NCBI GenBank assembly: GCA_001661245.1
Contig: KV454015.1
Location: 856,924-920,923, forward strand
DNA: 64,000 nt
Direction: 5' to 3'
From: Pachysolen tannophilus NRRL Y-2460
Lineage: Eukaryota
Under the pieces are notes generated by a model. That model saw nothing but the letters and a program-made list of their open reading frames with translations, did not search any database and was not told the DNA's origin. Both the position numbers and the translations under genes were made by a program. Positions 11,896 to 64,000 of this stretch are shown piece by piece (position 1 is the first letter of the stretch; every line of letters starts with the position of its first letter).

Positions 11896-13962
11896 TCACT
11901 CGGGTTGATAAGCATCAACCAACATTTTGAAATGCTCTTTTTCCTGAATCGCCAACTTTGAATCCATTAAAGACAAGCTAGTGTAAACTAAGTAATAGTT
12001 ATTGTATAAGAATAATTCTTTTTTATTGGATTCATTTTTTTTGTTGATTAGATTGTTTAGCTTGTTCAATACAATTTCAAAATCATTAGTCAATCGTTGG
12101 ATACTACTGCTTATTGGTTCAGTCAATGCTGTTTCAGAGACAGAATTAGTCGTCAAATTTAATAATCCTGTTAAGTATTTTGCAAATTGTTGTGTAAGGG
12201 GAACAGGTATTATACGAGAACTATCATTTCCTGGTAATAATGAAGATTTCTTGGTAAGTACTTTTTTCATATTTTCACAATTCAAATCTACCAATTTTTG
12301 AAACTTTGGCCATAATTCAATCATTTGGAGATTTAAATAATCTTCCATTATTGGAATTCTCCTATGTTGTAATTCAAACTCAAAACTCTGAGATAATCTA
12401 ATGCAAATCAATATACCATATGAATCATATGAATCACTAATGAGGTACTTGGTATAATCGATACCCAATTTAAAAGTCTTGTCAAATATATTATTACAAA
12501 TATCATTTTGTTCACCATTCTGTAATTTAAAAAATTCACCTAAAAATAAATATTCGACACATACATTGTCTAATAAGGCTAGGTTGAAATTCTTGAAACT
12601 AAATTCCATCCAATATGTAAGCTGGTTATTTTCAGCAATTTGTGCTAATATAACAGTGGGATCAACTGTAGTTATTATGGAGCCTCTATCGCCGAGGTTC
12701 AAATATTCATTGAGTAAAATCGGTCTTGATGATCCAGATGCATGGAAGTTATTAGCAGCATTGTCATTATTTGATGTATTAATACTATTCGGGTGTAATC
12801 TATTTGAACTTGAATTAAATAATTTGAAAGAATTCCCATTATTTGTAGAGCTGCTAACTAGATCCTCGTTGCTATTTCCCAATAGCATATGCTTTCCGAT
12901 TTGATGTATATTAAGCCTTTCTAAAGAGTATAGATATTTTGTAAAATAAGAATGATAAAACCATTTCATGGTATTTATATAAGCTTGTCTTAATTCCAAA
13001 GCCAATTCTTTATGATGAATTAAGAGAAATGAATAAATCTCTTCAACTTCTAATAAATGTTGTTGTATCACTTGTGATGGTACTCCACTGGCTCTTAATA
13101 GTTTGACTTGATTTACCATGTAATTTCTTATTCTTTCGATACATTTTAGTATTAATTTTTCCACAATCAGTGAAAGTTCTTTTATTGAAGTTAAGTTTGT
13201 CTCTTCATTTGATTGATATTTTGAATATATTTCTTTCTTTTCAGCAATAAATTTTAAATTTTCACACCATTTCAGATCAATTCTATCGTTTAAGATAGAT
13301 TTTACTACATCTGGTGGAATAATCAAATCATTAATTATTGGAGTCAATTTTTTTTCAATCAATTTTTTATCTTTAATTTCATCATCCAAGGTATTAGATT
13401 TTTTCTGTAAAAATTCCATCTCTTTAGAAAGTTTTGATAAATTTTTTTCAAAATTCCCAAGATAATCTCTTAATGGTTTTAAAAATCTTCTAGATTCAGT
13501 TAAAGTCTCATGATAAGAAATAAAATTATCTAACCCATCAATATAGGCTGTTTGTGAACCATATTTACTATCCAACCAAGTATTGTCCGAAATTGAATTT
13601 GGGTTACTTGTTCTTATTTTAATATTGCTCAAATGTTTTTTCAAATCTTCCTCTTTTTTTTCACTTCTTCTTGTTTCTTCATCTGAATTTTCAACAAATT
13701 GCTGCAACGATTGCAAATCAATATATTTTCTCTTCTCACCATTCTCACCATTCTCACCATTTTCGCCATTCTCATTGGCCTCCTTCACTTCAATATCATC
13801 TGATGAATTCAATATCTTCTTCAAGATTGAAATACTAGATTCATGTTCCATCTTATCATCCATATGTTTTGAAATCGACCGCCTCGATAATCTATGCTTA
13901 TGTGGTATTTCTGGTTGTGACTTATTATCATCATTCTTCATCCTAGACATAGTCCCAATCAT
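11896..13962 (-). CDS. VPS52: GARP complex subunit Vps52
   Basis: DLIIPPDVVKSIL, AYINTMKWFY, LLDNVCVEYLF and DSYGILICIRL...ELQHRRIP motifs of the Vps52/Sac2 family. Confidence 0.9.
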   Translation of the reverse strand: MIGTMSRMKNDDNKSQPEIPHKHRLSRRSISKHMDDKMEHESSISILKKILNSSDDIEVKEANENGENGENGENGEKRKYIDLQSLQQFVENSDEETRRSEKKEEDLKKHLSNIKIRTSNPNSISDNTWLDSKYGSQTAYIDGLDNFISYHETLTESRRFLKPLRDYLGNFEKNLSKLSKEMEFLQKKSNTLDDEIKDKKLIEKKLTPIINDLIIPPDVVKSILNDRIDLKWCENLKFIAEKKEIYSKYQSNEETNLTSIKELSLIVEKLILKCIERIRNYMVNQVKLLRASGVPSQVIQQHLLEVEEIYSFLLIHHKELALELRQAYINTMKWFYHSYFTKYLYSLERLNIHQIGKHMLLGNSNEDLVSSSTNNGNSFKLFNSSSNRLHPNSINTSNNDNAANNFHASGSSRPILLNEYLNLGDRGSIITTVDPTVILAQIAENNQLTYWMEFSFKNFNLALLDNVCVEYLFLGEFFKLQNGEQNDICNNIFDKTFKLGIDYTKYLISDSYDSYGILICIRLSQSFEFELQHRRIPIMEDYLNLQMIELWPKFQKLVDLNCENMKKVLTKKSSLLPGNDSSRIIPVPLTQQFAKYLTGLLNLTTNSVSETALTEPISSSIQRLTNDFEIVLNKLNNLINKKNESNKKELFLYNNYYLVYTSLSLMDSKLAIQEKEHFKMLVDAYQPE

Positions 13963-30067: not shown

Positions 30068-32106
30068 TCAAGAATAATGTTCTTTTAAAAACTTTCTTCT
30101 AAATTTGATGGTTTTAAGTCCATGAAGTTTTACCAACAGTTTAACTTTATTTGGCTGACTATGGAAATTTTGTAGTATTTCATCATCTTCATCAGAAAAA
30201 ATTCCAACTATTCCTTTTGGTGGGTTTAATCCTGTTTTCAAATAAATCTTTACGTATTCTGTAAATTTTGATAAATCACCAGAAACGCGAAACAAAACCG
30301 TCTCACTGAAATCTGTGGAAATACCTAGTTCTTTTTCAAATAGCTGGCAAATTTCAGATCCATTATCAGTAGTACTTGAGTCGATTAGACTAGAAAGTCT
30401 ACTGATGAACAGTTTTGGACCAGAAGATGACAATATTTCTGATGAAATAAATTTATCTTCTTTCACTTTCTCAGATTCCTGCCAATCACTATCATCAGAT
30501 ACATCAGGGACCTCTTCCTCTCCTTCAACAATCAGTTGTTGTTCTTGAAGCTTTTCAGACTGATTTTTACTATCATTAACATCATTTTCAGTTTCCTTGT
30601 CTAATTTACTATCTAAATCATTAGTTTCCAGTCTCTTATGTCCCACTTTACTAGGTGAAACATCAGTTGCCCGATCGTCATTACTATTAGCTGGATTAGA
30701 GGTTTTCAAAACTTTAGATGCACTTTGTAAACCATCCAACGTAGCTCTACGCTTCGCTGATGATTCAGGAATAGGCGACGCTCTTGCCGATTGGAAAACA
30801 TCATCACCGGGATGTTCATGACGGCGGTCTTTTCTAGTTTCTTTTAATAAAACATTCACGGCAACTGGTTCAATATCAGCCTCTTCGCATTTTTCGTAAT
30901 AATTCAAATACTTTTGGATACCGTAAACTGATATAAATTTTCTATACCTATCTCTCCAAGATAATTTTGAATGATCAGGATAAGTACCAGCCAAGTTATC
31001 AAAGAATTTACTAGTAGTCCATGTAACAATTTCTTTCCCTTCTTTATTGGTAGTTATCATTGCACTTTCTGTTATTTTCTTCGCCAATATATAATCATCA
31101 TCTGCGGTAAAAGGAGTTGACCTATTTATTGTCAAGGCAAGATCGCTAGTCTTGATCAATTCATTATTACTATCTTTGATTAAATTATTGTTTGAATCAA
31201 CTTGATAAACATATTTCAATCTTGGTTCTAAATATTGTTTAAACCTTGAACGTATAGATACTGCAGTTCTATTTTTAAGATTTTTGCTAATATCGTTATA
31301 AAGAGTATAACCTTTCCTATTTCTAGGATGCTTTCTAACTTCTTCCAAGATATATTCATCTTCTTCTTCTGTAAAAGCATTCTTTCTCAGAAGATTCTCT
31401 TGCAGCTGTCTACCCAGCTGGCTACTTGAGATAGGAGTACCTTCACCTATCGTTCCCGCTGCAGAATCAGAAGCAGAATTAGAAACAGCAGCAGCAGTAG
31501 CAGCAGTAGCAGTAGCAGTAGCTGCTGCTGCAGATCTGGCTTTAGCATTAGGAGCTTCTTTTGATTTAACTGGAGTTGTAATCTCGTGTTTTGATCCCAG
31601 CTCTTTGGATGGGGAAACAGAAACTACCTTTGGCTCCTTAGTAGGGTTCACTAATTTGAAATAGTTTAAATTCAACGTGGTTCTTTCTCTTATACATTCA
31701 AAAACATAAATAGGATTAAAATAACGCGAAGATGGAATGAACGGGTCATCATAATCCTCCGATGAAGTCAATACGATAATTGATGTTAAAATTTGTGGAT
31801 TTTCCTTAATATCTTCGGGTAATAACCTATTAATCACCCTTCCACCTTCTTCTTGGATCAACTTTGTCAATTTAATCAATTCTGGCTCATCCTCTGGAAT
31901 TAAAAACACATATGGTTCATTAAGTGCATTTGTAAATAATTCATGGTCACTATGACAAATTTAGTAGTGAGTATTTGAGTTGATAAGAAAAAAAAAAAAA
32001 AAAAAAAACAAACATTACAATATAATAACAATACTTACTAGTTAGCAGAACTATTCTTATGAGGTGACTCTTTATTTGAATCTGGTAAAGACACAAAGTC
32101 TGTCAT
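30068..32106 (-). CDS. RAP1: Repressor/activator protein Rap1 (BRCT, two Myb-like domains, RCT), 2 exons (~649 aa)
   Basis: KNAFTEEEDEYILEEVRKHP, FTADDDYILA and HSKLSWRDRYRKF, plus C-terminal GIFSDEDD...HG...RRKFL. Exon 1 32106-32039; intron 32038-31950 (GTAAGT...TAG) joins in frame. Confidence 0.92.
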
Positions 32107-32403
32107 TATCCAAGGCAATTATTCTTTTCTATTAACAATGAAGATAATGTCTTTTAAAAAAATAACAAATTATTAATTTTAATTATCTAATTAACATACA
32201 ATATTTATCTATCTAAGTGGTGTAGAATTTTTTTTGGGGGGGGGAAGGGGCCTGGTGTGATATTTAAAGGTTCACACCAAAAAAAATATTAAAAAAAAAA
32301 AAAATTTGAAAATGAAAACAAACTGGTAAAAACAGACTTCCTAAATAAGTAAGTGTGGCCTAATATTTATTGAGCAAATGCCAAATCCGGAATTTCGGAA
32401 AAA

Positions 32404-32590
32404 ACACCACATGCACCACCCACACCACGTGTATACCTCCGCACACCAGTCACACCAGTCACACCACATACACCACATACACCACAGCAAACCATACGTA
32501 CCACCTCACACCATGTGCACCACATACACCACATACACCACATACACCATTTCACACCATTTCACACCACTTCACACCACTTCACACCAA
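32404..32590 (+). repeat. Telomere-like degenerate tandem array of ACACCA units (9-bp then 10-bp period)
   Basis: 15 exact ACACCA plus degenerate GCACCA/ATACC/AAACCA/GTACCA units, including ACACCACAT runs and four copies of TTCACACCA(C/T/A). Confidence 0.9.
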
Positions 32591-32624
32591 TCACATAGAT
32601 TTATATGAATGAAAAGAAATTAGA

Positions 32625-34181
32625 TTAATCAAATTTAATTTTTTTAGCTTTAACATTCATATCAACGTTTTTGAAAAAAGCACCATAGGCACCATGTTCT
32701 TTCTTCTTAGTGTGTCCTCCGAATTTCATTAATTCGTCAGGTACCGGTTGATCACCAGACCTCAATACGTTCATTAAAGCTCCACTCAAATGTTTTTCAT
32801 GTTCTGTGAATAAAGTATGAGAAATACCTGTTTTACCTGCTCTTCCAGTTCTTCCAATTCTATGAACATAATCTTCTATTGTCAATGGGAAAGTTAAGTT
32901 AATAACTACTTTAACGTTTGGTATATCCAATCCTCTAGCAGCAACATCAGTTGCTAACAATAAGTTTGTTTTGCCATTTTTAAAATCATCCAAAGATTGA
33001 GTTCTTTGTTGTTGAGATAAATCTCCATGGATAGCAGCAACTTTAAAACCTTTATATTGTAAAGTTTTTTCAACTCTAGTAGCTTCTTTCTTATATAATG
33101 CAAAAATTAAAATTTTATCATTCAGATTTTTACCAGATTGATATTTATGTAATAAATTTATCAAGATTTTTTCCTTATTAAAAGGATCAACAACTTCAAC
33201 AATTTGGGTGATTCTCTTATTTGCAGATAATTCATCTCTATTACCTATTGAAATTCTTATTGGAGACTTCATAAAAGTTGAAGCTAATTCTCTAACTTCT
33301 TTTGGCCATGTTGCAGTAAACATTAAAGTTTGTCTATTAATTGAATTTGTCTTTGAAATGATTTTTTTAATATCTTCTTCAAAACCTTTTTCAAGCATTC
33401 TATCAGCCTCATCCAAAACTAAATAATTAATTTTACTCAAATTAATTGAACCTTCTTCCATTAAATCTAATAATCTACCTGGAGTTGCAATTACACAATT
33501 AGAAGTCTTGACTGATTTTCTTTGCTCATCTTTAGAAACACCTCCATAGATACAAGTACAACTTAAACCAGTAATATCAGTTAATATTTTCAAATTATCA
33601 TAGATTTGGGAAGCCAATTCTCTTGTTGGAGATATCACCAACACTTGTAAATCTTTCTTATTCCCAGTAGTCAAGATATGATTAATTGCAGGGACTCCAA
33701 ACGCAAACGTTTTCCCTGATCCAGTTTCAGCAACACCAACCACATCTTTCTTCTGTAATAAATACGGCCATGAAACAGACTGAATCGGTGTTGGTTTTGG
33801 AAATTCAGAAATTTTCAGTAAAATCTTAGAATCAATTTTCCCCTTTAAAATATCAAATGACAAGATAGGTTTTAAACCAAGATTTGATGCATCTTCAACT
33901 TTTACCTCGTTATCCTTCAAGAAAGCATCCGCATCCACTTGTGAAACTTCTTCCCCTGCATCAACATCAATCTCAATCTCGCTCTTTTTTTCTTCAACTT
34001 CCACCAGTCTATTTTCTTCACGTTCTTTCTTATGTTTCTTGTGTTTTTTATCTTTCTTCTCCTTCTTCTCCTTCTTCTCCTTTTTATGTAACTTATCTTT
34101 CTTCGACTTCTTCTTCAACGAAACCTCCTCTTCAACATCCTCACTCTTTCTCTTTCTGTCCTTCAACTTATCAGACCCCAT
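32625..34181 (-). CDS. DBP3: DEAD-box RNA helicase Dbp3 (pre-rRNA processing)
   Basis: KKE-rich N-terminus, [18 protein letters not shown] (TAT variant), HRIGRTGR and C-terminal GGHTKKKEH...KKIKFD. Confidence 0.95.
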
Positions 34182-50067: not shown

Positions 50068-50383
50068 NNNNNNNNNNNNNNNNNNNNNNNNNNNNNNNNN
50101 NNNNNNNNNNNNNNNNNNNNNNNNNNNNNNNNNNNNNNNNNNNNNNNNNNNNNNNNNNNNNNNNNNNNNNNNNNNNNNNNNNNNNNNNNNNNNNNNNNNN
50201 NNNNNNNNNNNNNNNNNNNNNNNNNNNNNNNNNNNNNNNNNNNNNNNNNNNNNNNNNNNNNNNNNNNNNNNNNNNNNNNNNNNNNNNNNNNNNNNNNNNN
50301 NNNNNNNNNNNNNNNNNNNNNNNNNNNNNNNNNNNNNNNNNNNNNNNNNNNNNNNNNNNNNNNNNNNNNNNNNNNNNNNNNNN
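50068..50383. other. Assembly gap
   Basis: Run of N preceded by a long poly(A). Confidence 0.99.
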
Positions 50384-58065: not shown

Positions 58066-61000
58066 TTATTCCTCATCATCTGTATCCACCGGTTTTGGTG
58101 TACCTTTTGGAGAACTTAACCACTCGATATGACGTAATCTTCTTCTTTCTTCTTGTAATTTTTTCTCATTTCTAGTCATCTTCTTCTTTCTAATTCTTAC
58201 TTTAATATTAGCTGGAGAATCATCATCATCAACTCTTTTCTTTGTAGATGTTGCCTCGGTTGCATTACCTCCGTCTTCAAATCTTGATTGATCGATTTCA
58301 GCAACACCTTTTTGAACCATGGTTCCGTTTTCAACAATCCATTGTTCTGGACATAAAGCACCAACAAATTCGCTATTATGAGAAATCATAACAACACCAC
58401 CAGACCAATCTCTAATTGCTACAGCCAATCCTCCTAAGGAGTCTCTATCAAGATAATTGGTAGGTTCATCTAAAACCAATAAATGAGGGTTGTTCCACAT
58501 AGCACCTGCAATAACAACTTTGACTAATTGTCCTCCAGATAATGATCCAAGTAAAGTATGATCAGCAATATCACCATCTAATCCAACATCTTCAAAATGT
58601 TTACGAATAACTGTAGGAGTCAACTCACGATATCCTAAACCTTCTCTTGAGGCTTCATGATCATCAAATTTTTGTACTAATTTAGAAAAACCTTCTTCAA
58701 CTAATAATTCTCTTGGTACCCATGAATTATATTTTGGTAACCAAAATTTCCATTTAACTTCATATTGGAAAGATTTTTTCAATTTTTGTCTACCAACAAT
58801 GGCTTCAATAGCTCTTTTACCTCTTCCATCATTAACATCAATTTCCTTTTCCATCATTTGTCTTTCTTCATCAGAAATCTTACGAGATTCTTTTAATAAA
58901 ACTTCTCTATCATCACCAAATTTATATCTCCATTGTAAATATTGATTAGCTGTTTTCTCCTTATGCATCTCAACATGTTGTAAAGCATGTTGCGCTATAT
59001 AACCAATACGTAAATTTGGATGTTTTTCAACTTTCCCCTCTTGAGGAACTAATTCACCTGTTAATAATTTAATCAAAGTTGATTTACCTGCACCGTTAGG
59101 ACCTAAAACAGCAACCCTTGAAGATAAAGATAATGAACATGAAACACCGCTCAACGATGGCTTTGAAGCTCCTGGGTAAGTAAATGAAACATTTGACATT
59201 TTAGCAACAGCTCTAGTATTAGATTTGACACCAGTTAAAATACCAGGAGGAGGGAAAGCCATCTTAACATTTGAATCTGTTAAAGTATAGTAGGATTTAC
59301 CTTCTGGTTTAACTTTAACAAATTCAGATAAATTACCTTTGTAATAAGCCAATTTTTTATTTTCGTAATGAATGATATCGGTACAAACTGTATCCAAAAA
59401 TCCAGAATCATGGGAAACAATTAAAGATGTGATATCAGTGTGAGAGACCAAGTAATCTTCTAACCATTTAACATTTGAAACATCCAAATGATTAGTAGGT
59501 TCATCTAATAATAAAACATCCGCCTTCATTAACATGGCTCTTGCTAATTCCAATTTCATCTTCCATCCACCAGATAAAGAACCAACATGCTGTGATCTTC
59601 TAAATTCATCGAAACCAACTTCATTCAAAGCATTAGATATATCTTCTCTTGAAACTCCTTGTAATTCTGGATCAGAAGCAATAAATGAAACCAAATCCAT
59701 ATCAGCTTCTGAACCTTGCAATTTATGTTCGACAAAACAAGTTCTCAATTCTGATTTATCTGGGAAACCTTCTAATTGGCCATTGGCAATGGATCTCATT
59801 AAAGTCGATTTACCAGCACCGTTACGACCACATAAACCATATCTATGACCTTTTAATAATCTCAAGTTAGTCTTATTTAATAACATTCTACCACCATAAG
59901 CTAAAGAAAAATCTGAATTTACAATTTCAATACCATCATCATCATTACTTTCTACAGCTGCTGGTGTGAATAATTCTCTCAATTGGTGTATCAAATTTTC
60001 AACAAATTCAGTTTTAGTTGTCTCATTTTCCAAATAACTAGATAATGCCATTTGTAAATATTCTTTCAATCTTTTCCAATCATTAACGTTAGCATCTGCA
60101 GCCAAGATAACACTTAAATAGTTTAAGATTACTTCATCAGTAATACTTAAACTGTCAAAATATTTTCTAGCGTCTTCTGGAGCAATTCTACCGTGGAATT
60201 TACCATCAGATTTCTCAGCATCGGCATCTTCCAAGACTTGTAAAGCTTTTGCAGCTAATTCTCTAACTTCCGGTAATGATGCAGTATCAACGACTTTCTT
60301 AACACCTGGTAATAAGATTGGTATAAAACTTTCAATTTCTCTCTTGTTATTAACTAATCTTGTTAAATTTTCAGTAACAATAACAGTTTGTCTTAATTGT
60401 TCTTGTGAAGAAGAGGATAATTTTAAAGAGGTGGATAAAATTGGTACTAATAAGGATAAAGCAGGTTCTGTAACTTCAGCAACAAATGTAACAGATGCAA
60501 ATGATTTGATACAGTCTGGAACTTTTCTTGGATCTGCTAAAGTTTCAACAATTGTATTATAACGTGGAGATAAATCCAAATTATCCAATACTTTTACAAA
60601 ATCATTCATTGTCTTTAATCCAACTTTTGCTAATTCAGGTTTAAAGTCAACCGCCATATCGGTTAATATAGGAATAGCATGAATAAATGTCATTTCTAAT
60701 AAATCATTTGGAGCATCTTCAATTAATTTATCAACCATTTTTAAACAACCAACTTTACTTTGCCATTTTGCTGAAGATTTTAAATAAGCCAACAACCCTG
60801 GAAATAATACTGAAGGTAAAGCTTCAACTGGGAACATTCCATAAATTGAGTCTATACAAGATTGTGCAGCTCTTTTTACATTATTTTCTTTATCTGCCAA
60901 CAAATCAAATGCACATGGTAAAAGTTTAACAAAATATGCTTCTGAAGGTGTTTGACCACCAAATTTCCTGGCTAAAGATGATAATAACAACATACTTGAT

Positions 61001-61437
61001 TCTCTTATCAATGGAGTATTTTTCTGTTTACCTAAAGATTTTAAAACTTCTAATATATTCCATTCATTTATAGCACTGACACCATGTTGAGCAATAACAT
61101 CTACAATTACATCACATTCTTTTCTTACATCGGCAAGTTGTTTAGCATTTTGAATATTCTCCAAATTCCCAGAAATTGGAGATATTTCTAATTTCTTCAA
61201 CGCAGAAGTTAATGAAGTTAACGAAGTTGTTGAAGGTGCATGACTGATTGGAGTACTTATACCACTAGTAGAAGCAGATGACGAGTCAACAGTAACATAA
61301 CCACTACGCTGCTGATCCAACGATGGCGATACACCCAGCACCTTCCTATTCAAACCTCCTCCTTGTTTCTGCTTCATATAATCCTCATAAGATAACTGCG
61401 GCTTTCTACCACCACCAGTTCTATTATTTTGGGACAT
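58066..61437 (-). CDS. NEW1: ABCF/eEF3-like ATPase New1
   Basis: HEAT region, two ABC cassettes (GRNGAGKST, LSGGWKMK; GPNGAGKST, LSGGQ), chromodomain insert, STTSLTSL N-terminal motif and the New1-type C-terminus. Confidence 0.9.
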   Translation of the reverse strand: MSQNNRTGGGRKPQLSYEDYMKQKQGGGLNRKVLGVSPSLDQQRSGYVTVDSSSASTSGISTPISHAPSTTSLTSLTSALKKLEISPISGNLENIQNAKQLADVRKECDVIVDVIAQHGVSAINEWNILEVLKSLGKQKNTPLIRESSMLLLSSLARKFGGQTPSEAYFVKLLPCAFDLLADKENNVKRAAQSCIDSIYGMFPVEALPSVLFPGLLAYLKSSAKWQSKVGCLKMVDKLIEDAPNDLLEMTFIHAIPILTDMAVDFKPELAKVGLKTMNDFVKVLDNLDLSPRYNTIVETLADPRKVPDCIKSFASVTFVAEVTEPALSLLVPILSTSLKLSSSSQEQLRQTVIVTENLTRLVNNKREIESFIPILLPGVKKVVDTASLPEVRELAAKALQVLEDADAEKSDGKFHGRIAPEDARKYFDSLSITDEVILNYLSVILAADANVNDWKRLKEYLQMALSSYLENETTKTEFVENLIHQLRELFTPAAVESNDDDGIEIVNSDFSLAYGGRMLLNKTNLRLLKGHRYGLCGRNGAGKSTLMRSIANGQLEGFPDKSELRTCFVEHKLQGSEADMDLVSFIASDPELQGVSREDISNALNEVGFDEFRRSQHVGSLSGGWKMKLELARAMLMKADVLLLDEPTNHLDVSNVKWLEDYLVSHTDITSLIVSHDSGFLDTVCTDIIHYENKKLAYYKGNLSEFVKVKPEGKSYYTLTDSNVKMAFPPPGILTGVKSNTRAVAKMSNVSFTYPGASKPSLSGVSCSLSLSSRVAVLGPNGAGKSTLIKLLTGELVPQEGKVEKHPNLRIGYIAQHALQHVEMHKEKTANQYLQWRYKFGDDREVLLKESRKISDEERQMMEKEIDVNDGRGKRAIEAIVGRQKLKKSFQYEVKWKFWLPKYNSWVPRELLVEEGFSKLVQKFDDHEASREGLGYRELTPTVIRKHFEDVGLDGDIADHTLLGSLSGGQLVKVVIAGAMWNNPHLLVLDEPTNYLDRDSLGGLAVAIRDWSGGVVMISHNSEFVGALCPEQWIVENGTMVQKGVAEIDQSRFEDGGNATEATSTKKRVDDDDSPANIKVRIRKKKMTRNEKKLQEERRRLRHIEWLSSPKGTPKPVDTDDEE

Positions 61438-61805: not shown

Positions 61806-61901
61806 CTTAAAAGAGTGTTTTGAGATTCTGTGCACGATGGTTTGGACTTCCTTTTTTGTTTTTTCCATTTTCGGATTTTGTGATTTTACACAGACGACTA
61901 G

Positions 61902-61928
61902 AGTGGTGCAAGTGGTGCAAGTGGTGTA
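61902..61928 (+). repeat. Three 9-bp units of AGTGGTG(C/T)A followed by a (GT)n tract
   Basis: AGTGGTGCA AGTGGTGCA AGTGGTGTA; reverse complement of the RAP1-array core. Confidence 0.8.
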
Positions 61929-62035
61929 GTGTGTGTGTGTTTTTTTTTTTTTGATTTTTATTTTTCTTTCCTATATTAAATTAAAGTATGGAGGGAAGCA
62001 CAGTAATTAACTTATCTTTATTTCTTTGGTGAGAA

Positions 62036-62577
62036 ATGAAGACAATCAAGGAAGAGAGTTGTTTGAATGACGGGGCCAGGGATGGCGAGGCCATTGATTC
62101 AATGACTGCGGTGGAATATCTTGAAAAACAGCTAGAATTGTACGTTTATTAATTATACTTTAATGATTTATTTTTTATTTATTTAGTTTTTGAGTAATTT
62201 TGGTGTAACTAACAATTTTTTTTTTTTTTTCTTTTTTTTTTTCATGTAGAGAGAAAGAAGCTAGGGAACTTATGCCTTATGATCCCAATATTTGTACCTA
62301 TACAATTGGTGCTTTACACCAGCAAGTTTATGCTTGTTTGACTTGCCGAGAAAATGATACAAAGAAACCTTATCAGGTATATGTTATTCTTGTTCAATTC
62401 AATGTCATTCTTCTCATGAATTAGTGGAATTATTTTCAAAAAGAGATTTTACTTGCGATTGTGGAACCACTAGAATGAAGTATAATGGGGGTTGTCGGTT
62501 GAGAAATAGGCCAAGTACGAGGAGATCTTCGTTTGCTTCACAATCGTTGTTGGATCTCAATGGCAACGGGAACAACA
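62036..62577 (+). CDS. UBR-box zinc-finger protein (UBR7/Mlo2-like); spliced, with a 1-nt frameshift, and truncated by the gap
   Basis: Exon 1 62036-62139; intron 62140-62249 (GTACGT...AACTAAC...TAG). Gives QLELEKEARELMPYDPNICTY...VYACLTC, then GICYSCSIQCH..HELVELFSKRDFTCDCGT after a shift near 62370. Confidence 0.82.
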
Positions 62578-63352
62578 NNNNNNNNNNNNNNNNNNNNNNN
62601 NNNNNNNNNNNNNNNNNNNNNNNNNNNNNNNNNNNNNNNNNNNNNNNNNNNNNNNNNNNNNNNNNNNNNNNNNNNNNNNNNNNNNNNNNNNNNNNNNNNN
62701 NNNNNNNNNNNNNNNNNNNNNNNNNNNNNNNNNNNNNNNNNNNNNNNNNNNNNNNNNNNNNNNNNNNNNNNNNNNNNNNNNNNNNNNNNNNNNNNNNNNN
62801 NNNNNNNNNNNNNNNNNNNNNNNNNNNNNNNNNNNNNNNNNNNNNNNNNNNNNNNNNNNNNNNNNNNNNNNNNNNNNNNNNNNNNNNNNNNNNNNNNNNN
62901 NNNNNNNNNNNNNNNNNNNNNNNNNNNNNNNNNNNNNNNNNNNNNNNNNNNNNNNNNNNNNNNNNNNNNNNNNNNNNNNNNNNNNNNNNNNNNNNNNNNN
63001 NNNNNNNNNNNNNNNNNNNNNNNNNNNNNNNNNNNNNNNNNNNNNNNNNNNNNNNNNNNNNNNNNNNNNNNNNNNNNNNNNNNNNNNNNNNNNNNNNNNN
63101 NNNNNNNNNNNNNNNNNNNNNNNNNNNNNNNNNNNNNNNNNNNNNNNNNNNNNNNNNNNNNNNNNNNNNNNNNNNNNNNNNNNNNNNNNNNNNNNNNNNN
63201 NNNNNNNNNNNNNNNNNNNNNNNNNNNNNNNNNNNNNNNNNNNNNNNNNNNNNNNNNNNNNNNNNNNNNNNNNNNNNNNNNNNNNNNNNNNNNNNNNNNN
63301 NNNNNNNNNNNNNNNNNNNNNNNNNNNNNNNNNNNNNNNNNNNNNNNNNNNN
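62578..63352. other. Assembly gap
   Basis: Run of N. Confidence 0.99.
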
Positions 63353-63426
63353 AAAAAAAAAAAAACAAATTCTTCATAAATATATACTTATATAATTTGC
63401 ATTTAATCGAAATAGATGGATTTAAT

Positions 63427-64000
63427 TTAGTGACTAACCACAACCGTCTTAATATTTAAATATTCATTAACACCATATTTAGAACCTTCTCTACCAAAAC
63501 CTGAATATCCAACACCACCAAATGGCATAGCTGCTTCAGAAATAACACCCGTATTGGCTCCAATCATACCAACATTAAGTGCTTCTGCAACCCTCAAAAT
63601 CCTACTATAGTCTTTCGAAAAGAAATAGCCAGCAAGTCCTAAATCTGTATCATTTGCGTATGACAAAACTTCTTGTTCTGTCTTGAACTTGATCAAAGGA
63701 GCAATTGGACCAAATGTCTCCTCTTTAGCAATTAACATATCTTGAGTGACATCACCTAAAACGGTTAAACTATGAAAAAATGGACCCAATTCAGGAACTG
63801 ATACACCGCCAGCTAAAACTTTTGCATTTTTGCTCTTTGCATCTTGAATTTGATTTTTAACTTTTTTCAAAGCATTGGCATGGATCAATGGTCCATGAGT
63901 AATACCTTCTTCAAAACCATCCCCTAGTTTTAAACTTTTAACTTTCGAAACCAATTTCTGAGTGTATTCATCATAAACATCTTCGTGAACATAAATCCTA
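63427..64000 (-). CDS. Second succinate-semialdehyde dehydrogenase, 3' part only
   Basis: RIYVHEDVYDEY, THGPLI, EETFGP, LGLAGYFFS and PFGGVGYSGFGREGSKYG; the frame is open to the window end. Confidence 0.85.
   Translation of the reverse strand, partial: RIYVHEDVYDEYTQKLVSKVKSLKLGDGFEEGITHGPLIHANALKKVKNQIQDAKSKNAKVLAGGVSVPELGPFFHSLTVLGDVTQDMLIAKEETFGPIAPLIKFKTEQEVLSYANDTDLGLAGYFFSKDYSRILRVAEALNVGMIGANTGVISEAAMPFGGVGYSGFGREGSKYGVNEYLNIKTVVVSH

Follow-up and report, generated by a model that had tools for sequence, protein, structure and literature searches.

The RAP1 promoter of Saccharomyces cerevisiae is reported to contain multiple binding sites for Rap1p, the product of the gene itself (Graham & Chambers 1994, Mol Microbiol 12:931); these are a few canonical 13-bp sites, reportedly non-essential for activation. 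The locus described here, from the yeast Pachysolen tannophilus, resembles that promoter in having sites (here candidate sites) for the gene's own product family upstream of RAP1, which is the basis for possible autoregulation in both cases. Unlike the S. cerevisiae promoter, it carries about 20 tandem units in a 9-bp telomere register, and it belongs to a species with two Rap1 paralogues.

Telomeric sequence inside chromosomes is the other close comparison. In S. cerevisiae, long tracts of telomeric sequence inside chromosomes have a silencing effect (Stavenhagen & Zakian 1994), and interstitial telomeric sequences have been reviewed (PMC6410037); the P. tannophilus array is likewise an internal, telomere-related tandem and a potential Rap1 array. 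The tracts known as silencers are exact telomere repeats, engineered or natural, whereas the P. tannophilus array is degenerate (none of its 20 units is an exact telomere repeat), 186 bp long and situated in a promoter.

In H. polymorpha, duplicated Rap1 proteins with diverged specificities, Rap1A and Rap1B, have sites at subtelomeres and at the promoters of ribosomal-protein genes (Malyavko et al. 2019, PMC6510891). Two points of that work come near to the present case, namely telomere-like motifs as promoter elements and the recognition of the P. tannophilus telomere oligonucleotide by the B paralogue. The H. polymorpha sites are single and 12-13 bp long, and the words autoregulation, own promoter, RAP1 promoter and interstitial do not occur in that paper. 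It also calls the A/B assignment of the two Rap1 homologues of P. tannophilus ambiguous, and it gives the putative telomere repeat of the species as GGTGTGAGT, the major variant, which is 9 bp long and accounts for 59 of 64 repeats (PMC6510891 Suppl. Table S5), the putative telomere repeats of that study having been drawn from genome ends.

Telomere-binding proteins are also shared between telomeres and promoters. It was reported in the cited part of PMC6974733 that yeast Rap1 freed from shortening telomeres moves to new promoters, and for human TRF2 promoter occupancy depends on the share of the protein that is held at telomeres (Mukherjee et al. 2018, PMC6264879), although this case differs from ours in the protein, in the kingdom and, in the passages cited, in concerning the promoters of genes other than the one for the telomere protein. 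Roadblock termination by Rap1 and Reb1 (PMC6602560) has in common with the present locus a general regulatory factor site (here a candidate one) between tandem genes; each roadblock known so far consists of one site, and the passages of PMC6602560 used here report no array.

Interstitial telomeric sequences are already known, as are RAP1 promoters with Rap1 sites, and the array is a variant of both. Our literature search returned no report joining GGTGTGAGT, or the telomeres of Pachysolen, to an array in the RAP1 promoter.

Results

The window, that is, the whole stretch of DNA that was analysed, comprises 64,000 nucleotides (64 kb), and all positions refer to it. The protein encoded by the gene below the array contains the Pfam domains BRCT_2, Myb_Rap1, Rap1-DNA-bind and Rap1_C, and its DNA-binding domain aligns to the solved domain of S. 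cerevisiae Rap1 (ScRap1) with E = 4e-33. It shares 99% identity with the protein PACTADRAFT_34678 from Pachysolen tannophilus NRRL Y-2460, and the inspected differences are all at CTG codons, which P. tannophilus reads as alanine. Judged by these domains and alignments, the gene is a bona fide RAP1.

RAP1 lies on the minus strand and is composed of exon 1 (32039..32106; 68 nt, with the ATG at 32106-32104 and 22 codons plus 2 nt), a 5' intron (31950..32038; 89 nt, GTAAGT...CATAG) and exon 2 (30068..31949, stop codon included), which encodes the BRCT, the two Myb and the RCT domains. The true ATG is missed by a plain ORF scan, because the first exon has only 68 nt and the intron follows after codon 22; the ORF of exon 2 is without an ATG, and the N-terminus MTDFVSLPDSNKESPHKNSSANY of the NCBI protein agrees with our exon model. 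Between its BRCT and Myb domains, the protein has a run rich in Ala and Thr, which is encoded by a GCA/CAG-type triplet repeat at 31461-31533 (minus strand); assembly contigs break at this repeat. Upstream of RAP1 on the same strand is a DEAD-box helicase gene (32625..34181, minus; stop codon 32625-32627), which in our own reading of its sequence is possibly 'Dbp3-like'. The two genes are arranged in tandem, and about 35 bp separate the helicase stop codon from the array, a closeness on which the original prediction was silent; since the array also stands in the 3' flank of the helicase gene, a barrier or terminator role is possible.

The telomere-like tandem array occupies 32404..32590, with its G-rich strand on the minus strand, and consists of about 20 units in which a TGGTGT core alternates with variable spacers of 3-5 nt. 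A script scan of the plus strand of 32404-32590 gave 19 xACCA units, of which 15 are exact ACACCA (the whole 64-kb window has 40 ACACCA on the plus strand), and the count of 19 becomes about 20 if a degenerate unit within the sole 21-bp step is included. The 18 steps between units are 9, 9, 21, 9, 9, 9, 9, 10, 9, 10, 9, 9, 9, 9, 10, 10, 10 and 10 bp, i.e., 9 bp in 11 of 18, 10 bp in six and 21 bp in one, and the 10-bp units are grouped at the end of the array that faces the helicase gene. The G strand (TGGTGT) is the coding strand of RAP1 and runs 5' to 3' toward that gene, the array edges being 298-484 bp upstream of the RAP1 ATG (32106, minus). On the G strand, the units are, in order, GGTGTGAAGT twice, GGTGTGAAAT twice, GGTGTATGT three times, GGTGCACAT, GGTGTGAGGT, GGTACGTAT, GGTTTGCTGT, GGTGTATGT twice, GGTGTGACT twice, GGTGTGCGGA, GGTATACACGT, GGTGTGGGT, GGTGCATGT and an end unit formed by a terminal GGTGT. 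These values agree with the original prediction, which had described about 20 units with 15 exact ACACCA, a 9-bp period that changes to a 10-bp period, a distance of about 300-480 bp from the RAP1 ATG and no equal array elsewhere in the window.

The last of these points is supported by Tandem Repeats Finder, in which the array, with a score of 158, ranks highest of the 11 rows with a score of at least 70 in the window; none of those rows is longer than its 186 bp, the runners-up being a 58-nt poly-A and a 66-nt TA run. The periods that the program reported for the array are 9, 10, 18 and 56. The longest chain of ACCA at steps of 8-11 bp has 16 members, while 100 simulated 64-kb sequences (order-1 Markov) reached a maximum of 2 (95 of 100) or 3 (5 of 100). 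Outside the array, no pair at 7-11 bp was present among the 43 ACACC and 41 GGTGT on the plus strand of the window. The array is far above chance expectation.

When the 20 units are aligned, the core columns have T in 19, G in 20, G in 20, T in 20, G in 17 and T in 17 units, counts that are partly circular because the phase of the units was set from GGT, although the recurrence of the core at 9-10 bp is not circular. The columns flanking the core carry 0.2-0.8 bits. A core that is kept while the spacers drift is the pattern expected of half-sites under constraint. The runs of identical adjacent units and the 56-bp higher-order period point to slippage or segmental duplication, as in a neutral minisatellite.

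The array is internal in the chromosome, as ordinary genes extend for more than 30 kb on either side and contigs from two samples span both flanks; its sequence is identical in all four of the DNA runs whose contigs were compared (two samples, of which one is possibly the source). A coding role was rejected, the array holding only stop-to-stop frames without context. An RNA role was rejected too, as Rfam gave no match at E<=1 in 31800-32800 and the fold of the array was nothing unusual (z-score -0.22).

The published telomere repeat and the array have the TGGTGT core and the 9-bp period in common (11 of 18 steps for the latter), and their spacers are partly alike. Exact GGTGTGAGT is found in none of the 20 array units; when edits from GGTGTGAGT were counted (computed, save for two merged units scored by eye), six units were at one edit, seven at two, three at three and three at four, the remaining one being the terminal partial unit. 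A tandem of GGTGTGAGT aligned locally to the array with a score of 156, compared with 12-62 for the telomere units of six other yeasts taken from that table (Suppl. Table S5 of PMC6510891). Additionally, the spacer GAGT of the telomere repeat ranked 3rd of the 256 GGTGT+NNNN repeats that were aligned to the array, and the only spacers ahead of it, ATGT and AAGT, are matches or near-matches of the commonest spacers of the array itself. By these alignments, the likeness to the telomere unit reaches past the core and the period. Since the core, the 9-bp period and a part of the spacer are shared but no unit is identical, the array is best described as a degenerate interstitial telomere-like array. 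The original prediction had suggested a comparison with chromosome-end repeats and had guessed that the array may reveal a 9-bp register and the telomere repeat of the species; this was largely right as regards core, period and alignment, and it did not hold for the exact repeat.

The repeat type is present elsewhere in the genome. Within the array, a 32-nt stretch of GCACCACAT followed by ACACCACAT units (32518..32549) is present twice in the genome: the 32-nt unitig at this position has a depth of 237, about two times the 118-120 of its neighbours (run X1), and a 4872-nt contig has 32520-32553 with one difference and then diverges, remaining CACCA-rich. The doubled depth together with this contig indicates at least one further genomic locus with this repeat type, and the element is consequently not unique to RAP1. 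Inside the window there is a mini-array of three units with a 9-bp period at 61901-61940 (plus strand; GGTGCAAGT, GGTGCAAGT, GGTGTAGT, then a GT run and poly-T). A NEW1/EF3-type ABC translation-factor gene (58066-61437, minus) has this mini-array about 470 bp upstream of it. In S. cerevisiae, Rap1 classically targets translation genes, as stated in the cited passages of PMC6510891. The mini-array is related to the RAP1 array but smaller, and it is a candidate Rap1-type promoter element; its place before a translation-factor gene fits such units serving as promoter elements. One more 9-bp repeat with TGGTG, TTCTCACCA in 4.7 copies at 13733-13774 (minus), was rejected as unrelated, being coding (a GEN tripeptide in a Vps52-like ORF). 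The window has runs of N at 50068-50383 and 62578-63352, and the ORFs listed across 62475-63459 were discarded as artefacts of the latter run.

Several known motifs can be seen in and beside the array. With at most one mismatch allowed, the motif bound by H. polymorpha Rap1B, GGTGYGAGGWGT (PMC6510891), matches the 64-kb window just once, and this match, GGTGTGAGGTGG at 32501..32512 (minus), falls inside the array. The irregular 21-bp unit contains GGTGTGCGGAGGT (32435..32447, minus), the sole intergenic site that comes within two mismatches of the HpRap1A core and of the S. cerevisiae-type Rap1 consensus with its 8-bp spacing. The same irregular unit holds a CACGTG E-box (32426..32431, no strand assigned), which we take to be a possible Cbf1-type site. 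A CACGTG motif of this type is described in the cited passages of PMC6510891. Between the array and the ATG there are three isolated TGGTGT cores, at 32218 (+), 32253 (+) and 32279 (-), or about -112, -147 and -173 from the ATG. A CCG-N6-CGG everted repeat at 32387-32398 adjoins the RAP1-proximal end of the array and resembles a zinc-cluster factor site. The consensus sequences of Tbf1, Reb1 and Abf1 do not occur in the RAP1 intergenic region. Some 125-145 bp before the ATG, with an isolated TGGTGT core on either side, the region also has a T8 G8 AAGGGG tract at 32231-32252 (+), which contains AGGGG, a STRE-like word. Long poly(dA) runs are found at 31988-32012 and 32279-32304.

The second Rap1 paralogue of the species is PACTADRAFT_2194, a protein of 508 aa with the same four domains that is encoded on another scaffold. 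The Myb1 recognition helix of the window Rap1 reads NRTAVSIRSRFK, compared with NHTGNSIR in PACTADRAFT_2194 and in the other aligned homologues. The Myb1 signature was scored in the 96 of 127 sequences in which the motif was located: RTAVS is unique to the window Rap1 (two entries, one protein), and HTGNS is present in 76 of the 96. The linker between the Myb domains is two residues longer in the window Rap1 than in five aligned homologues, helix and linker being at about 225-240 and 270-285 of the 627-aa Rap1 translation. Assignment to the Rap1A or Rap1B family by the Myb1 helix was tried and rejected, as deviant helices are found in Komagataella and CUG-Ser yeasts alike. The 8-bp half-site spacing of the ScRap1 consensus, quoted as KRTGTRYGGGTGT in PMC6510891, is approached in the array by the match at 32435-32447 alone, and the half-sites of the array are 9-10 bp apart, like those of the species' own telomere. 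In Table 1 of PMC6510891, the P. tannophilus telomere oligonucleotide is graded '+' as a competitor for HpRap1B and '-' for Rap1A, '+' being the weakest positive grade for HpRap1B and the protein being heterologous.

For comparison with other yeasts, metagenome contigs were searched with a profile of 28 Rap1 proteins, which gave 11 Rap1-encoding loci; 10 of the 11 have upstream DNA (one of them just 143 bp), and L011 is a fragment. The encoded proteins are all distant (27-45% identity), so that the comparison covers distant rather than close relatives. Arrays upstream of RAP1 in other genomes, for which the original prediction had suggested looking, did not turn up at these distant loci: a tandem array of period at least 5 and comparable size within 1 kb upstream was present in none of the 10, and the sole repeat near an ATG, at L007, has 2.3 copies of a 29-bp unit. 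This implies that the array is lineage-specific or recent.

Rap1 sites before RAP1 have a precedent in the report on S. cerevisiae, and candidate sites are present at the metagenomic loci. Sites with at most two mismatches to the ScRap1 consensus are found no more than 160 bp before the predicted RAP1 ATG at 6 of the 10 loci (L005-L010) and at none of 13 control ORFs (at least 200 aa, same metagenomic loci), which corresponds to a one-sided Fisher p of about 0.002 (hand calculation). Predicted starts match independently called homologues in five of the six loci, L007 being less certain, and at L007 an identical 13-mer is present twice, 29 bp apart. The G-strand orientation of the P. tannophilus array to its gene is opposite to that of 8 of the 9 consensus matches upstream of metagenomic RAP1 genes. 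On the basis of these consensus matches, Rap1-type sites before RAP1 look recurrent, with Pachysolen as an extreme version in telomere register.

Discussion

The array probably lets Rap1 proteins bind and tune RAP1, as far as the sequence can tell. As the best explanation we propose that it may be a platform with many sites at which one or both Rap1 paralogues bind, which would lead to auto- or cross-regulation of RAP1, and we give this reading a rough probability of 0.45, i.e., somewhat below one half. In this reading, the array would repeat the telomere unit of P. tannophilus in a degenerate, interstitial form, and the Rap1 protein or proteins would load onto it. With the two Myb domains of each molecule spanning two units, there would be room for about 9-10 Rap1 molecules, and since the array is at a normal UAS distance (-298 to -484), its occupancy would tie RAP1 transcription to the free Rap1 pool. 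The pool that is sensed may be that of the gene's own product or that of the paralogue PACTADRAFT_2194, and regulation of this kind would sense Rap1 dosage. A few Rap1 sites activate. The effect of the array could accordingly have either sign, activation as at ribosomal-protein promoters or repression as at long internal telomeric tracts. The release of Rap1 from telomeres (PMC6974733) and the partitioning of TRF2 (PMC6264879), in the passages cited, make the idea of titration reasonable. The original prediction that 'Rap1 counts itself' leaves out the second paralogue, and both the counting and the RCT-mediated silencing that went with it are hypotheses.

The platform reading draws its support from the likeness to the telomere, from the constraint on the core, from the HpRap1B motif and the competition by the telomere oligonucleotide, from the alignment of the DNA-binding domain to that of ScRap1, and from the candidate Rap1 sites before RAP1 elsewhere. 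The lack of a Tbf1, Reb1 or Abf1 consensus and the mini-array before the translation-factor gene also speak for it. It is weakened by the absence of exact units (0 of 20), the 9-10-bp spacing, the low grade of the heterologous HpRap1B competition, the second locus and the lack of arrays at the other RAP1 loci (0 of 10), and further by the signs of minisatellite-like slippage and by the orientation opposite to 8 of the 9 metagenomic sites.

In a different role, Rap1 or another tight binder on the array would act as a barrier or roadblock that halts read-through from the helicase gene, keeps a nucleosome-free region and shields the RAP1 promoter, with no dosage sensing. The position of the array about 35 bp past the helicase stop, between two tandem genes of the minus strand, speaks for such a role, as do the long poly(dA:dT) runs between array and ATG. 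According to the cited passages of PMC6602560, which refer to Colin 2014, Candelli 2018 and Yarrington 2012, Rap1 and Reb1 bring elongating RNA polymerase II to termination and guard against interference by read-through. One or two sites are enough for this in S. cerevisiae, however, so that the twenty units are left unexplained, as is the fact that the shielded gene should be RAP1 itself, and we consider the barrier role rather unlikely. To the same degree we doubt that the array is a neutral relic, i.e., an interstitial telomeric sequence left by a telomerase-healed break or a captured telomere, which then drifted and was expanded by slippage, with its adjacency to RAP1 a coincidence. A relic would account for the absence of any exact telomere repeat among the 20 units, for the blocks of identical neighbours and the 56-bp higher-order repeat, for the second locus with the same repeat type and for the lack of an array at the 10 other RAP1 loci. 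Against it, the decay is uneven, as the 6-bp core is near-invariant and the spacers are nearly saturated with change; three further isolated cores occupy the 300 bp from the array to the ATG, and chance siting at one of the two paralogue genes whose product family binds the motif seems unlikely.

A platform for some other factor, such as a zinc-finger or bHLH protein that binds CACCA/TGGTG or an E-box and has no link to Rap1, appears to us the least probable of the explanations. It could be argued from the shortness of the conserved core (just 6 bp), from the CACGTG E-box and the CCG-N6-CGG repeat in or beside the array, and from a spacing that departs from the 8-bp ScRap1 site. The similarity to the telomere unit exceeds the core, however, the 9-bp register is the telomere period, and the consensus sequences of Tbf1, Reb1 and Abf1 are absent, all of which speaks against this explanation.

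Returning to the platform reading, a bolder form of it would be a homeostatic loop in which the array serves as a 'telomere proxy'. Telomeres and the 20-unit tract would compete for Rap1, and occupancy of the tract would report the supply of the protein versus total telomere length and so set RAP1 transcription; possibly one paralogue senses and the other is regulated, and the altered Myb1 helix with the linker that is longer by two residues would be an adaptation to the 9-bp spacing. We hold this full loop to be improbable, falling in likelihood between the barrier or relic and the platform for another factor, and that the helix and linker changes are related to the wider half-site spacing is speculation.

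Conclusions

The array should be of interest to telomere and transcription specialists alike. If Rap1 does load on a miniature telomere before its own gene, P. tannophilus would offer a natural, compact system in which the supply of a telomere protein is set against telomere length, and also a system for the switch between activation and silencing as a function of the number of Rap1 sites. The sites at 6 of 10 RAP1 loci of uncultured yeasts suggest that candidate Rap1 self-binding is widespread. For the clade of P. tannophilus, the array would, if the proposal is true, be a second, internal substrate for learning how its Rap1 paralogues read half-sites that are spaced by 9 bp.
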